Shown here piece after piece: positions 21,512 through 62,946 of a stretch of DNA of 64,000 nt. A model generated the notes under the pieces. It had not been told where the DNA came from, made no database searches, and saw only the letters and a list, made by a program, of their open reading frames with translations. Both the position numbers and the translations under genes were made by a program. The stretch is from Escherichia coli (GTDB lineage Bacteria > Pseudomonadota > Gammaproteobacteria > Enterobacterales > Enterobacteriaceae). The stretch lies in the NCBI RefSeq assembly GCF_013315695.1, contig NZ_CP054353.1; one strand, 5' to 3'. How positions within the stretch are numbered: position 1 is the stretch's first letter; each line of letters opens with the position of its first letter.

Positions 21512-24065
21512 ACCGGTAGGCGATCTGGTCGTTGATTTGAGTCTGGATGCGGCCAGATTTGACGAGCAGATGGCCAGAGTCAGGCGTCATTTTTCCGGTA
21601 CGGAAAGTGATGCGAAAAAAACAGCGGCAGTCGTTGAACAGTCGCTGAGCCGACAGGCGCTGGCTGCACAGAAAGCGGGGATTTCCGTCGGGCAGTATAA
21701 AGCCGCCATGCGTATGCTGCCTGCACAGTTCACCGACGTGGCCACGCAGCTTGCCGGCGGGCAAAGTCCGTGGCTGATCCTGCTGCAACAGGGGGGGCAG
21801 GTGAAGGACTCCTTCGGCGGGATGATCCCCATGTTCAGGGGGCTTGCCGGTGCGATCACCCTGCCGATGGTGGGGGCCACCTCGCTGGCGGTGGCGACCG
21901 GTGCGCTGGCGTATGCCTGGTATCAGGGCAACTCAACCCTGTCCGATTTCAACAAAACGCTGGTCCTTTCCGGCAATCAGGCGGGACTGACGGCAGATCG
22001 TATGCTGGTCCTGTCCAGAGCCGGGCAGGCGGCAGGGCTGACGTTTAACCAGACCAGCGAGTCACTCAGCGCACTGGTTAAGGCGGGGGTAAGCGGTGAG
22101 GCTCAGATTGCGTCCATCAGCCAGAGTGTGGCGCGTTTCTCCTCTGCATCCGGCGTGGAGGTGGACAAGGTCGCTGAAGCCTTCGGGAAGCTGACCACAG
22201 ACCCGACGTCGGGGCTGACGGCGATGGCACGCCAGTTCCATAACGTGACGGCGGAGCAGATTGCGTATGTTGCTCAGTTGCAGCGTTCCGGCGATGAAGC
22301 CGGGGCATTGCAGGCGGCGAACGAGGCCGCAACGAAAGGGTTTGATGACCAGACCCGCCGCCTGAAAGAGAACATGGGCACGCTGGAGACCTGGGCAGAC
22401 AGGACAGCGCGGGCATTCAAATCCATGTGGGATGCGGTGCTGGATATTGGTCGTCCTGATACCGCGCAGGAGATGCTGATTAAGGCAGAGGCTGCGTTTA
22501 AGAAAGCAGACGACATCTGGAATCTGCGCAAGGATGATTATTTTGTTAACGATGAAGCGCGGGCGCGTTACTGGGATGATCGTGAAAAGGCCCGTCTTGC
22601 GCTTGAAGCCGCCCGAAAGAAGGCTGAGCAGCAGACTCAACAGGACAAAAATGCGCAGCAGCAGAGCGATACCGAAGCGTCACGGCTGAAATATACCGAA
22701 GAGGCGCAGAAGGCTTACGAACGGCTGCAGACGCCGCTGGAGAAATATACCGCCCGTCAGGAAGAACTGAACAAGGCACTGAAAGACGGGAAAATCCTGC
22801 AGGCGGATTACAACACGCTGATGGCGGCGGCGAAAAAGGATTATGAAGCGACGCTGAAAAAGCCGAAACAGTCCGGCGTGAAGGTGTCTGCGGGCGATCG
22901 TCAGGAAGACAGTGCTCATGCTGCCCTGCTGACGCTTCAGGCAGAACTCCGGACGCTGGAGAAGCATGCCGGAGCAAATGAGAAAATCAGCCAGCAGCGC
23001 CGGGATTTGTGGAAGGCGGAGAGTCAGTTCGCGGTACTGGAGGAGGCGGCGCAACGTCGCCAGCTGTCTGCACAGGAGAAATCCCTGCTGGCGCATAAAG
23101 ATGAGACGCTGGAGTACAAACGCCAGCTGGCTGCACTTGGCGACAAGGTTACGTATCAGGAGCGCCTGAACGCGCTGGCGCAGCAGGCGGATAAATTCGC
23201 ACAGCAGCAACGGGCAAAACGGGCCGCCATTGATGCGAAAAGCCGGGGGCTGACTGACCGGCAGGCAGAACGGGAAGCCACGGAACAGCGCCTGAAGGAA
23301 CAGTATGGCGATAATCCGCTGGCGCTGAATAACGTCATGTCAGAGCAGAAAAAGACCTGGGCGGCTGAAGACCAGCTTCGCGGGAACTGGATGGCAGGCC
23401 TGAAGTCCGGCTGGAGTGAGTGGGAAGAGAGCGCCACGGACAGTATGTCGCAGGTAAAAAGTGCAGCCACGCAGACCTTTGATGGTATTGCACAGAATAT
23501 GGCGGCGATGCTGACCGGCAGTGAGCAGAACTGGCGCAGCTTCACCCGTTCCGTGCTGTCCATGATGACAGAAATTCTGCTTAAGCAGGCAATGGTGGGG
23601 ATTGTCGGGAGTATCGGCAGCGCCATTGGCGGGGCTGTTGGTGGCGGCGCATCCGCGTCAGGCGGTACAGCCATTCAGGCCGCTGCGGCGAAATTCCATT
23701 TTGCAACCGGAGGATTTACGGGAACCGGCGGCAAATATGAGCCAGCGGGGATTGTTCACCGTGGTGAGTTTGTCTTCACGAAGGAGGCAACCAGCCGGAT
23801 TGGCGTGGGGAATCTTTACCGGCTGATGCGCGGCTATGCCACCGGCGGTTATGTCGGTACACCGGGCAGCATGGCAGACAGCCGGTCGCAGGCGTCCGGG
23901 ACGTTTGAGCAGAATAACCATGTGGTGATTAACAACGACGGCACGAACGGGCAGATAGGTCCGGCTGCTCTGAAGGCGGTGTATGACATGGCCCGCAAGG
24001 GTGCCCGTGATGAAATTCAGACACAGATGCGTGATGGTGGCCTGTTCTCCGGAGGTGGACGATGA
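21504..24065 (+). CDS. H: tape measure protein H
   Basis: 853 aa, the lambda gpH length. Long coiled-coil/Ala-Gln-rich centre and Gly-rich C-terminal region. Confidence 0.95.
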   Translation: MAEPVGDLVVDLSLDAARFDEQMARVRRHFSGTESDAKKTAAVVEQSLSRQALAAQKAGISVGQYKAAMRMLPAQFTDVATQLAGGQSPWLILLQQGGQVKDSFGGMIPMFRGLAGAITLPMVGATSLAVATGALAYAWYQGNSTLSDFNKTLVLSGNQAGLTADRMLVLSRAGQAAGLTFNQTSESLSALVKAGVSGEAQIASISQSVARFSSASGVEVDKVAEAFGKLTTDPTSGLTAMARQFHNVTAEQIAYVAQLQRSGDEAGALQAANEAATKGFDDQTRRLKENMGTLETWADRTARAFKSMWDAVLDIGRPDTAQEMLIKAEAAFKKADDIWNLRKDDYFVNDEARARYWDDREKARLALEAARKKAEQQTQQDKNAQQQSDTEASRLKYTEEAQKAYERLQTPLEKYTARQEELNKALKDGKILQADYNTLMAAAKKDYEATLKKPKQSGVKVSAGDRQEDSAHAALLTLQAELRTLEKHAGANEKISQQRRDLWKAESQFAVLEEAAQRRQLSAQEKSLLAHKDETLEYKRQLAALGDKVTYQERLNALAQQADKFAQQQRAKRAAIDAKSRGLTDRQAEREATEQRLKEQYGDNPLALNNVMSEQKKTWAAEDQLRGNWMAGLKSGWSEWEESATDSMSQVKSAATQTFDGIAQNMAAMLTGSEQNWRSFTRSVLSMMTEILLKQAMVGIVGSIGSAIGGAVGGGASASGGTAIQAAAAKFHFATGGFTGTGGKYEPAGIVHRGEFVFTKEATSRIGVGNLYRLMRGYATGGYVGTPGSMADSRSQASGTFEQNNHVVINNDGTNGQIGPAALKAVYDMARKGARDEIQTQMRDGGLFSGGGR

Positions 24066-58599: not shown

Positions 58600-59727
<1,128 letters not shown>

Positions 59728-60004
59728 TTATGTTGGCGTTTTCTATTCAGTATAGAAGTGGGAGCGACTGGGCGAGATGCGGAAGTTCTGGAATATTTCT
59801 TTTTTTTGGATGGTGACTGAAGCAAATTGGCTACATTTTGCAATGTGACCAGTTGCGTCATAGCTGGCTGGTGGCGAAGAATTTTGACGATTGCGGCATG
59901 CAGAAAAAAACGGGTTCAGCTTCAGTTGATCAAATGGGGAGTGAGAAGTCCGAAACAGGATTTACTGTATAAATAAGGGTCTTCCCCGATCATGGTGGGA
60001 AGAC

Positions 60005-61225
60005 TCAGTACGCCATATTCAGTTTCCCATAGTGGAACATAACTCCCAGTTTAAAGCGTTCCCGGTTTCGGTATCCCCTGGCCTTTATCCTCAGCAGTCT
60101 GATCTTGCTGTTCAGCGCCTCCGCATTTCCATTCGAGACGCGATGACGCATTGCATTCAGTATTCCGTATAACCGTTTTTTAATGGTTTTCGCTGCGTTT
60201 TTCATCATCGGCACATCACATTCAGACGCCAGCGATATCCACTGCAACCAGTCATTCCTGCGTTCTGTGCTCCAGGGGCGATCCCAGATATTTTTTGCCA
60301 GCTCTTTCAGTGTCCAGCACTGGCTTGTCTGTTGCATCTGTTCCCGCAACCACATCAGCTTTTCCTGCCGGGACTCAGTCATCCATTTGTCGCTGTACTG
60401 CCACAGGAAGCGGGTACCTTTGGCCTGACGACGACTTTCAACAGGGAGGTGCGGATGTTCATTCTGGCGGGTTTTATCAACCACTTCGCCCAGTTGCTTC
60501 GCCACATGGAAGCGATCGAAGGCGATTTTCTCGACCGCATTGGGTAAATGGATACGCGCTGCTCTTATATAGCCCGCATTCATGTCCATCGACAGTGTTT
60601 TGATGGCCAACAACTGACTGTCAGTAAGCGAACGGAGATAGCTGGCAAGACTCTCTGTGCCACGATCATCGGTTAATGCCAGTGCCCGCCCGTCGCGATC
60701 AGATACCACGGTTATATACCTATGCCCTTTTTTAAAGGCGACTTCGTCTACATTCATATGACGCACTGATAAAGGCTTTTTAATCCGCGACAGGCCTCGC
60801 TTAACCGCGCGGGTCATGATGCCGTCAACGGCATTCCAGCTAAGTTTAAGTTGTTTTCTGACCGCATCAACGGTGCTGATTTTAAGCCATGAGAGCACGA
60901 ACGATTCGAACAGCAGAGTGTACCGACTGCCGGAACCTGCCCACGGTACAGGCAGAGTCTGGCAGCCATGCTCCGGGCACATAACGCGGGGAACATCGGC
61001 TTCTACTAATGTCATGAACTGGCAGGTATCAAGGTGGCGCCATTTACGATGTCGGTGATCGTGAACAGAACAGGATTTCCTGCAGGTCGGACAGGTTAAC
61101 TGAGTATTTTCAGCAATTCCGACTGTAACAGTAACGGAACCTGCATTTTCATCGAGGGTAAGGGATTTAACCTGCCATGGTGCAGTCAGGTTAAGGATAT
61201 GGGCATAGAGGGATTTTTCGTCCAT
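60005..61225 (-). CDS. ISL3-family DDE transposase
   Basis: 406 aa. N-terminal zinc-finger (CPTCRKSCSVHDHRHRKWRH...CPEHGC) followed by a DDE_Tnp_ISL3-like body. Confidence 0.9.
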   Translation of the reverse strand: MDEKSLYAHILNLTAPWQVKSLTLDENAGSVTVTVGIAENTQLTCPTCRKSCSVHDHRHRKWRHLDTCQFMTLVEADVPRVMCPEHGCQTLPVPWAGSGSRYTLLFESFVLSWLKISTVDAVRKQLKLSWNAVDGIMTRAVKRGLSRIKKPLSVRHMNVDEVAFKKGHRYITVVSDRDGRALALTDDRGTESLASYLRSLTDSQLLAIKTLSMDMNAGYIRAARIHLPNAVEKIAFDRFHVAKQLGEVVDKTRQNEHPHLPVESRRQAKGTRFLWQYSDKWMTESRQEKLMWLREQMQQTSQCWTLKELAKNIWDRPWSTERRNDWLQWISLASECDVPMMKNAAKTIKKRLYGILNAMRHRVSNGNAEALNSKIRLLRIKARGYRNRERFKLGVMFHYGKLNMAY

Positions 61226-61243
61226 ATAATTTCATTCTGAAGC

Positions 61244-61762
61244 TTACTTTAAACTGATATTATTATTTTTTGCCCACTTTCTTAATCTTCCATTAGCGTT
61301 GGCGTAAGGCGAAGATGTGTTAAATGAGATCATTCTCCCCATCGTCCATTTTGTGTACCATGGTCTTCCATACAAAATATCATCGGTACGATCATTAATA
61401 AGGTTCACAATCTCATTTTTTACAGTCTGAAGTTCAGCTACTAACAACTCATAACTTAACTCACTGTAATCTGAGTAAAATTTTTGAGCAAGAAGGCCAA
61501 GCTGATTCCATTTATAGCCAGTTTCCGGAAAATCGACAGGCAGACCTTTAGCATCAGAAGCGATCCACTTTACAACAAGAGCATTCCATCCAAGCAGATA
61601 CGAAACGAGATCACGAACACTCATCTCCGTTCCTTTGGCGTGTCCGTCCATTGATTTATCTGAAGTAATTTCTGGTGGGATTGTGTTGAGGTAACTAATT
61701 AATTTACTAAAATTTTTATCAATAGCTAAAAGCAGTTCAGCTTTTGTTTGCGGCACACTCAT
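61244..61762 (-). CDS. ClbS/DfsB-family (DUF1706) four-helix-bundle protein, IS passenger
   Basis: 172 aa. Conserved blocks shared with my memory of colibactin self-resistance protein ClbS: GHAKGT..SV..LVSYL.GW, FPE.G.KWN.LG.LAQKFY.DY, LYG.PWY.KWT.GRMI.FNT.SPY.NA.GRL.K. It lies 18 nt upstream of the transposase, inside the IRs. Confidence 0.7.
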   Translation of the reverse strand: MSVPQTKAELLLAIDKNFSKLISYLNTIPPEITSDKSMDGHAKGTEMSVRDLVSYLLGWNALVVKWIASDAKGLPVDFPETGYKWNQLGLLAQKFYSDYSELSYELLVAELQTVKNEIVNLINDRTDDILYGRPWYTKWTMGRMISFNTSSPYANANGRLRKWAKNNNISLK

Positions 61763-62051
61763 AAGAATTCCCTCTCATGTAAAAAGAGACACCATAAAGG
61801 TACTGTGTGGTGTTTGAAAATCACTCAATTATGTACCACCCACCACAACAGGGGAAGACCCATAAATAAACAGTTATTTTGTTGAGGAAGGGTAAGATAA
61901 CTGCGGGTGCCTGAAGCTTTCCGGTTTCAGGTTTACTTTGAGGTCTGGAAAGATGAAGCCCCAGGAGATATTTCTATCAACCCTGGGGCTGCCACTCCAA
62001 ACCCGAACAATTTGGATGGTAGTCCCTTCTTCGCATGGAGGCAATATAAAC

Positions 62052-62204
62052 ATGCTGACGAAATATGCCCTTGTGGCAGTCATAGTGCTGTGTTTAACGG
62101 TGCTGGGATTTACGCTTCTGGTCGGAGACTCGCTGTGTGAGTTTACGGTGAAGGAACGTAATATTGAGTTTAAGGCTGTTCTCGCTTACGAACCGAAGAA
62201 GTAG
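62052..62204 (+). CDS. hokE: Hok-family type I toxin HokE (in-frame upstream Mok-like extension from ATG 61953)
   Basis: [50 protein letters not shown] (50 aa), the internal start of track ORF 61938-62204. Confidence 0.85.
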
Positions 62205-62325
62205 CCGCTGTGCGGGGAGTAATCCCCGCATATCCGGTTGTCAGGTCAGGATGGTAAGGCACCTGCTTTACACTTTCGCCCGCGGTCAGCAATGGCTGCG
62301 GGCGAATCGTACCAGATGTTGTCAA

Positions 62326-62946
62326 TTAATCGTGTTGGCACAGCGTTATGACTATTTTTTCTTTTATCTGCCAGTGCACAGCAAACTGCTCATCCTCTAG
62401 TCGAATGATGATCTGCTGTTTATTCCAGCTAATTATCTGATAATCCAGAAAACCTTGAGCGGCCTGTATCTTGCTTGCCTTAAATGCGCTCTCTTTGGCG
62501 GAAAATGCCAGTGTCAGCGCCAGAGAAAAGGTTAAACCGCATTCTGCGAGTCGCTCGTGTTCTGCTGGTGTAATAATGTTGTCTGTCAATTCTCTAGCGG
62601 TTTGTACAGAGAAAATCTCTTCGATATCAATGCCAATCGGTTGACGAGATACCACGGCTAATGCCGTAGTCCCATAGTGACTAATGCTGCCGTATACCCC
62701 CGCAGGCCACACAGGTTGGCGTAGCTCGCCGATTGCGGGCACACATTTATAGCCATATTCCCGCAGCGCATAAACTGCAGCGATCCGTCCGGCTAAATGC
62801 TCTGTTTTACGTTTACGTCCAGCGTGTTGCAGTTGCGCGTAGTGCGGCAGCCAGAGTAAATCCTGCTCGCGAAAACTCGCAGGATCGAACTCAACAAAAT
62901 GCAGCGTATGTCCGGTAAAGGGGAGGGCGGTATGCGTAGTTTTCAT
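62326..62946 (-). CDS. entD: enterobactin synthase 4'-phosphopantetheinyl transferase EntD
   Basis: 206 aa MKTTHTALPFTGHTLHFVEFDP... PPTase motifs (GSISH, FSAKESAFK). Confidence 0.9.
   Translation of the reverse strand: MKTTHTALPFTGHTLHFVEFDPASFREQDLLWLPHYAQLQHAGRKRKTEHLAGRIAAVYALREYGYKCVPAIGELRQPVWPAGVYGSISHYGTTALAVVSRQPIGIDIEEIFSVQTARELTDNIITPAEHERLAECGLTFSLALTLAFSAKESAFKASKIQAAQGFLDYQIISWNKQQIIIRLEDEQFAVHWQIKEKIVITLCQHD

Follow-up and report, generated by a model that had tools for sequence, protein, structure and literature searches.

An ISL3-family insertion sequence with a preference for SOS boxes has probably split the LexA operator of hokE in Escherichia coli

Why an insertion sequence (IS) should lie directly upstream of an intact toxin gene, at a locus that has been hit by more than one kind of IS, is the question raised by a stretch of 64,000 nucleotides from the Escherichia coli contig NZ_CP054353.1 (assembly GCF_013315695.1), referred to here as the window. 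In the chromosomal interval ybdK-hokE-entD-fepA of this DNA, an ISL3-family element of the ISEc53 type precedes hokE, the toxin gene of a type I hok/sok system. A first-pass annotation of the window, made from its letters alone, described the position of the insertion and explained it by recurrent selection to disarm or rewire hok expression, or by outward promoter activity from the IS end. The geometry it described has been borne out and the explanations have not; that the target is a LexA operator had gone unrecognized. The interpretation favoured here, with a probability of roughly 0.8, is that the LexA operator of hokE was split by an ISL3 element with SOS boxes as its target. We are highly confident of the anatomy of the insertion and of the targeting rule, and regard the regulatory outcome at hokE as an even call.

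The element lies between two perfect direct copies of the 8-bp sequence ATAAATAA and has imperfect terminal inverted repeats (GGGTCTTCCCC... and ...GGGGAAGACCC). Its length and ends are those of annotated copies in other genomes, so that it represents a typical ISEc53; identical copies elsewhere are named 'ISL3-like element ISEc53 family' by the Prokaryotic Genome Annotation Pipeline (PGAP). When the IS and one copy of the duplication are removed, the rebuilt empty site reads ...GGATT-TACTGT-ATAAATAA-ACAGTT-ATTTTG..., and its core, TACTGT-ATAAATAA-ACAGTT, is the LexA/SOS box of hokE. The cut lies exactly between the two half-sites and the duplicated 8 bp are the spacer of the box. ISEc53 thus appears to have entered the hokE LexA operator at its centre, through a staggered cut of 8 bp. 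The reconstructed box (TACTGTATAAATAAACAGTT) matches the LexA consensus (TACTGTATATATATACAGTA) at 17 of 20 positions, and alignment shows the box CACTGTATAAATAAACAGCT at the same place in K-12. A LexA box has been documented at K-12 hokE (PMC2826370) and is compiled with a heterology index of 4.9 (PMC11228462 Table 1). In the window 1.9 kb now separate the half-sites, and no box is restored at either junction, where the sequences are CTGT-N8-GGGT and ACCC-N8-ACAG. The empty site that the first-pass annotation had predicted, with ...TTTACTGTATAAATAAACAGTTATTTT... at its centre, does exist in nature: the reconstructed 400 nt are covered to at least 80% in 4894 of the 5426 complete E. coli genomes that served as the census set.

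The same position in hokE is used by a second element. ISKox3 is 1316 bp long and has no passenger gene; it shares its inverted repeats and 8-bp duplications with ISEc53, and its transposase is 90% identical to that of ISEc53. In AR_0114 and other E. coli strains ISKox3 is found at the identical nucleotide with an identical duplication. Within the census set, the orientation seen in the window occurs at the hokE box in 5 genomes for ISEc53 and in 14 for ISKox3, and the opposite orientation in 7-8 genomes for either element, giving about 27 genomes with either element in both orientations together. A bias in orientation, with the transposase always divergent from hokE, was considered and dropped in view of these opposite junctions. 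The flanks in the census range from 100% down to 97.3% identity, and the local contexts vary, with single or tandem hokE, with or without IS186 and with or without IS150. These differing flanks and local contexts indicate that the insertions at the hokE box arose in several independent events.

The positional rule extends well beyond hokE. Other copies of ISEc53 occupy the LexA box of tisB twice, in opposite orientations (strains ZY22049 and MS 21-1), and further copies lie in two prophage boxes and one degenerate plasmid site. Two pattern scans supply the statistics. The first used the right-end sequence of the IS alone as its pattern, with one genome per species, and returned 64 loci from many enterobacterial genera. 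The flank began with N8 followed by ACAG in about 40 of about 58 readable right flanks, compared with a chance rate of 1/256. Both ends and an intact duplication were available for 20 distinct sites, of which 17 had the form CTGT-N8-ACAG and 18 the form CTG-N10-CAG. Sites without matching duplications came mostly from an IS-rich Symbiopectobacterium genome, and half-boxes can still be seen there on individual flanks. The second scan was independent, matching a left-end pattern against metagenome contigs; CTGT stood at -12 to -9 in 65 of the 82 distinct left flanks (CTG in 70), and the resulting logo reads TACTGTATATATAT immediately before the IS. Of the distinct insertion sites of the ISKox3/ISEc53 group sampled in enterobacteria, about 80% are SOS operators. 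Genes that turn their 5' ends to the IS encode UmuD (at many loci), HumD, UvrA, Cho, RecA, Ssb, SulA, DinI, YdjM and TisB. Five extra E. coli sites of ISKox3, at umuDC, both chromosomal and mobile, and at a P2-type dinI, were taken from flank-extended BLAST hits, a procedure biased to box-like flanks, and serve as illustration only.

ISKox3 and ISEc53 thus choose CTGT-N8-ACAG SOS boxes as their preferred target, and this preference accounts for the presence of different elements, in both orientations, at the same hokE nucleotide in unrelated E. coli. The recurrence at hokE is best explained in this way, by target specificity over selection or an outward promoter. The selective explanation holds that hokE is hit repeatedly by various IS families because the toxin is being disarmed or rewired, so that the position of the ISL3 element reflects selection. 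The locus does accumulate IS elements: 1731 of the census genomes have IS186/IS421 directly behind the hokE stop codon, about 27 have an ISL3 element upstream, and IS150 is in the leader in at least one strain. However, the ISL3 insertions are all at one nucleotide, the centre of the LexA box, and in many genera the same elements follow this rule at dozens of other, unrelated SOS genes. Furthermore, the hok reading frame, mok, sokE, tac and fbi are intact in the window, where nothing is obviously disarmed, and the empty site is kept in the great majority of the census genomes.

The IS186 insertions point the same way. In MG1655, IS186B (608007-609351) begins 19 nt after the hokE stop codon, in agreement with the first-pass annotation, which placed an IS186 on the other side of K-12 hokE. 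The exact site used by IS186/IS421 in K-12-type strains is the hairpin GGGGAGTAATCCCC, which fits the reported target preference of IS186, a G-run/C-run. The IS186 and the ISL3 hits at hokE both appear to be driven by target sequence, which counts against the selective explanation. With the evidence favouring specificity for LexA boxes wherever this IS group is found, we consider it improbable that selection determined the position of the insertion, though selection on hok expression, while not needed, may be an extra factor.

Two models can be considered for the way in which the box is found. In a direct readout, a transposase dimer would read the CTGT and ACAG half-sites symmetrically around the 8-bp stagger. 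Alternatively, the transposase could be tethered, being recruited by operator-bound LexA instead of reading the DNA sequence. The LexA motif reappears in full in the logo, down to the flanking T-A and an alternating A/T spacer, and the sites hit are bona fide SOS operators, both of which speak for tethering. Such flanking preferences could also stem from the pool of available CTGT-N8-ACAG sites, and atypical sites are used as well, including CTGT-TCCGAAGG-ACAG with its G/C-rich spacer (L042) and the coding sequence of capsule genes. We consider tethering less likely than not, and direct readout is the simpler model and fits the use of atypical sites. If transposase and LexA compete for the same bases, targets would be free mainly during SOS induction; such competition, if true, would couple transposition to DNA damage.

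The consequences for hokE depend on where the split box lies relative to the promoter. The distance from the end of ISEc53 to the hokE ATG is 191 nt (the first-pass annotation gave about 190), and to the predicted 5' end of the hok mRNA it is 44 nt. This start, at 61905, is predicted from homology to the hok family and falls within the range of 61900-61905 that had been proposed by analogy with plasmid R1. The Rfam model RF01794 matches the plus strand at 61905-62060 (83.5 bits, E 2e-18, gathering score 59) across its full length, 1-157, with model position 1 at 61905. In the predicted fold of 61905-62312, which has a minimum free energy of -170.6 kcal/mol (z = -6.0), the 5' GGGUGCCU pairs with the 3' AGGCACCU (62257-62264), giving the tac/fbi closure typical of hok mRNAs. 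Relative to this predicted +1, the junction between IS and native DNA is at -44/-43, just upstream of the -35 position, as had been suggested. In the uninterrupted allele the LexA box would extend from -49 to -30, with its right half, ACAGTT, at the position of the -35 hexamer. This hexamer lies 17 bp upstream of TAAGAT and is a poor match to the consensus. TAAGAT is a putative -10 sequence: the predicted start puts it at -12 to -7 (Table 1), and a simple consensus scan for promoters and terminators over 61700-62400, which included the last 162 bp of the IS, called no sigma-70-like promoter and so neither confirmed nor refuted it.

Some IS families create hybrid promoters, and with the junction just upstream of the -35 position, the end of the IS might be thought to provide hokE with an outward promoter or a hybrid -35. 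Here, however, the -35 position itself (61870-61875) is native DNA, the nearest -10-like hexamer is separated by 14 bp from AAGACC, with which the IS ends, and the scan found no promoter-like site. Both genes of ISEc53 are transcribed away from hokE, and both orientations of the elements occur at hokE, presenting different ends to the gene. Outward transcription from the IS, the second explanation of the first-pass annotation, is accordingly very improbable.

A further possibility is that the insertion silences hokE by displacing upstream DNA that its promoter needs, either an UP-like A/T tract or a -35 hexamer TTTACT acting with a -10 hexamer TATTTT. With ACAGTT so poor a -35 hexamer, contacts to A/T-rich DNA upstream might matter, and the IS end that replaces this DNA is G/C-rich. 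The 8-bp duplication nevertheless keeps the native A/T-rich sequence as far as -43. The alternative promoter, in which TTTACT overlaps the left half-site and TATTTT is at 61875-61880, would have been severed by the IS; it was rejected as a main model because of its short spacer of 15 bp and because transcription from it would begin about 18 nt before the conserved 5' end of hok, which pairs with fbi. Silencing by either route is doubtful, and is a more serious contender than selection or an outward promoter.

For the favoured interpretation, a split operator, the expected outcome can be set out as follows. A LexA dimer needs both half-sites, and binding at the split operator would be lost; hokE transcription would then be uncoupled from the SOS response. 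The native sequence from -43 downstream is unchanged and retains ACAGTT, TAAGAT, the tac/fbi-closed mRNA, mok, sokE and the hokE reading frame. The encoded peptide belongs to the Hok/Gef family (PF01848, 32 bits against a cutoff of 22 in a profile search) and has 49 of 50 residues in common with K-12 HokE; together with the in-frame Mok-like extension from 61938/61953, it is intact, as first annotated. The sokE stretch aligns with K-12 without gaps and with one substitution. The hairpin at which IS186 inserts in other strains is uninterrupted, and the 3' fbi element and terminator are therefore retained. Since this hok/sok core is unchanged, synthesis of the toxin should stay checked post-transcriptionally. 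hokE would be transcribed independently of SOS, possibly in a constitutively derepressed state, while SokE and folding of the mRNA would continue to limit toxin synthesis. The coordinates of these features are collected in Table 1.

Table 1. Coordinates of features at the hokE locus of the window (position 1 is the first nucleotide of the window).
Feature	Position	Strand	Details
ybdK	58600-59718	minus	
Left half of split LexA box	59963-59976		TA-CTGT and left duplication copy ATAAATAA (59969-59976)
ISEc53-type ISL3 element	59977-61861	minus	1885 bp; inverted repeats about 59977-59999 and 61839-61861
ISL3-family DDE transposase	60005-61225	minus	406 amino acids
Passenger gene, ClbS/DfsB family (DUF1706)	61244-61762	minus	172 amino acids; four-helix bundle; upstream of transposase gene
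Right half of split LexA box	61862-61875		Right duplication copy ATAAATAA (61862-61869) and ACAG-TT (61870-61875)
Putative -10 hexamer TAAGAT	61893-61898	plus	4/6 to consensus; -12 to -7 relative to predicted start
Predicted full-length hokE mRNA	61905-62312	plus	From RF01794 and fold
tac element GGGTGCCT	61905-61912		Pairs with fbi element AGGCACCT (62257-62264) in predicted fold
sokE antisense RNA	61949-62008	minus	Homology to K-12 b4835 (607733-607792, minus); position predicted by coordinate transfer
mok-like frame	61953-62204	plus	ATG at 61953; in frame with hokE, open from TTG at 61938
hokE toxin reading frame	62052-62204	plus	50 amino acids, intact, PF01848
Hairpin GGGGAGTAATCCCC	62214-62227		Exact IS186/IS421 site in K-12-type strains; uninterrupted in window (AR_0114 alignment)
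Terminator hairpin	62275-62306		Within predicted hokE mRNA
entD	62326-62946	minus	fepA next

Several points weigh against this interpretation or parts of it. In the scans, distinct flanks were counted as distinct events and some may share descent. The targeting is strong and not absolute, the motif being missing from about 15-20% of flanks; ISKox3 has also been recovered under selection in Klebsiella capsule genes, with duplications ATTTGTAA, ATACATAT and TTATAATT (PMC12057282). At hokE, the literature search yielded no mapped transcription start, and the placement of the box at -49 to -30 rests on homology to other hok mRNAs. Expression of K-12 hokE was not induced by azidothymidine in RNA sequencing (0.47-fold; PMC11228462), and hokE may be only weakly controlled by LexA, at least in the K-12 allele with its IS186 disruption. 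Furthermore, the insertion replaces A/T-rich DNA upstream of -43 with the G/C-rich end of the IS, which could lower the strength of the promoter, and both the poor hexamer at the -35 position and the lack of a promoter call between 61700 and 62400 count here as well. The split may also be reversible. Restoration of capsule through IS excision has been reported in a strain with IS5 and ISKox3 (PMC12057282), and if ISKox3-type elements excise precisely, the divided box could in principle be rejoined.

There is nothing unusual or new about the hok/sok locus as such. The K-12 hokE/sokE pair (b4415/b4835) has the same position between ybdK and entD, its HokE is 98% identical, and the leader, the sokE region and the sequence class of the LexA box are the same as in the window. 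The two alleles differ in what has been interrupted: in K-12 the LexA box is intact and IS186B, 19 nt after the stop codon, removes fbi and the terminator, whereas in the window the 3' end is intact and the box is split by ISEc53. The hok/sok system of plasmid R1 has the same mRNA architecture, with a 5' tac and a 3' fbi element, a mok frame and an antisense Sok RNA opposite the leader. Unlike R1 hok, hokE lies on the chromosome, and its promoter has a LexA box; none is known to us at R1 hok.

ISEc53 and ISKox3 are likewise elements that had already been named. Target-specific elements are familiar in bacteria, and include IS1397 and ISKpn1 in REP/BIME palindromes (repetitive extragenic palindromic sequences and bacterial interspersed mosaic elements), IS186 at G-run/C-run sites, IS30, Tn10 with its hotspots and Tn7 at attTn7. 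Like ISEc53, these make a strong and symmetric choice of target, at a fixed position relative to a palindrome. The ISKox3/ISEc53 group differs from them in that its preferred target is the operator of a global repressor, so that each insertion removes one gene from the SOS regulon. To our knowledge there is no precedent for an IS that prefers the operator of a global repressor. In the searchable full-text literature, a search that did not extend to ISfinder or subscription journals, no report was found of LexA-box targeting by ISKox3, ISEc53 or any other IS. What is new is an IS with a defined target where that target is a global repressor's operator, and priority for this is uncertain.

In its general form, the proposal is that ISKox3 and ISEc53, and probably their cargo-carrying relatives, home to LexA operators, by readout of the palindrome or by way of LexA-bound or LexA-free operators, and that each transposition removes one gene from SOS control. 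We judge this slightly more probable than its opposite. If it is true, the genes cut out of the SOS response include umuDC, recA, sulA, uvrA/ssb, dinI, tisB and hokE, and mobile DNA would have a previously undescribed route for rewiring the damage response, mutagenesis and persistence. It would be taken by elements found on NDM IncX3 plasmids and with ClbS-like, FosA-type and AAC(6')-type cargo. An IS group of this kind would be well suited to release genes from SOS control one at a time. Mutagenesis would go up where umuDC is derepressed, persistence would be affected by altered tisB and hokE, and filamentation and recombination by altered sulA and recA. Carbapenemase plasmids are already spreading these elements. 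The positions at which they insert could serve as independent markers of LexA boxes in enterobacterial genomes, and the system is a tractable model for studying how the specificity of a host repressor is acquired by a transposase, or how the two cooperate. At hokE, the idea of recurrent IS insertion is replaced by a specific and testable one, in which the SOS operator has been removed and the toxin-antitoxin core left intact.

Both proteins encoded by the element can be assigned to families. The transposase has the domains DDE_Tnp_ISL3 (1.3e-58), HTH_Tnp_ISL3 (2.9e-12) and Zn_ribbon_ISL3 (3.3e-10). The passenger protein matches DUF1706 over its full length (PF08020, 3e-54), as well as the structure 5cof (1e-114) and ClbS itself (6anr, 1.1e-55) in the Protein Data Bank; as judged from sequence, its homology to ClbS, the protein for self-protection against colibactin, is clear. 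No full CTGT-N8-ACAG box is present within ISEc53, and nothing convincing was seen when the region upstream of the passenger gene and the IS ends were read by eye. The only uninterrupted CTGT-N8-ACAG in the 64-kb window is CTGTCCATGATGACAG at 23556-23571, with a G/C-rich spacer; this is probably not a LexA box, one match being the chance expectation.

Relatives with the same ends carry differing passenger genes, as seen at L017/L019 (1748/1761 bp), L023 (2600 bp), L065 (2064 bp) and L009/L018 (2109/1684 bp). Their cargo includes a FosA-type fosfomycin-resistance transferase (199 bits; cutoff 180), an AAC(6')-I acetyltransferase (192 bits; cutoff 140), a protein with a weak match to XopG/HopH-like effectors and a 116-amino-acid protein without a known family. 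The ISKox3/ISEc53 group is one that behaves as a cargo-carrying IS. ISKox3 is widely reported beside umuD on NDM IncX3 plasmids. It is also known as a capsule-inactivating IS (PMC12057282).

A massive expansion of a 1315-bp element was observed in Candidatus Symbiopectobacterium endolongispinus (loci L010, L014-L016, L020, L022, L031, L033-L035, L039, L040, L046, L048, L050, L052, L054, L055, L057, L062, L066, L068 and L070). Many of these copies have flanks that do not match, and each side is still a LexA half-box; at L010, for example, uvrA is on one side and cho on the other. Such flanks are consistent with rearrangements in which IS copies, each previously inserted in an SOS box of its own, recombined with one another. 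The IS end, with LexA-box flanks of the gammaproteobacterial type, was also found on contigs assigned to Chryseobacterium sp. (L032), Arthrobacter mobilis (L037) and a metagenome-assembled genome of Chloroflexota (L045). The contigs of L037 (1658 bp) and L045 (1452 bp) probably reflect contamination or mis-binning and not the real host range. This explanation fits less well for L032, which is on a 339-kb contig.

Among individual strains, MS 21-1 (NZ_CP146670.1, 29965-35185) matches the junction of the window at 100% and also has ISEc53 in the LexA box of tisB, where the copy in ZY22049 has the opposite orientation. If the window comes from the MS 21-1 lineage, both of its SOS-regulated type I toxins, hokE and tisB, have split operators. 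Some E. coli, such as ATCC 43896 and ST131 2017_APHA, have two tandem copies of hokE, compared with the single copy in the window, and in ATCC 43896 ISEc53 lies between both genes, in the LexA box of the second copy. In ST131 2017_APHA the hokE leader is interrupted by IS150, about 124 nt downstream of where the ISL3 element ends. At the same position of the leader (query 324, about 61985 in the window), similarity is lost in at least seven further genomes whose box contains ISKox3, which suggests that this is a third recurrent IS site at the hokE locus.

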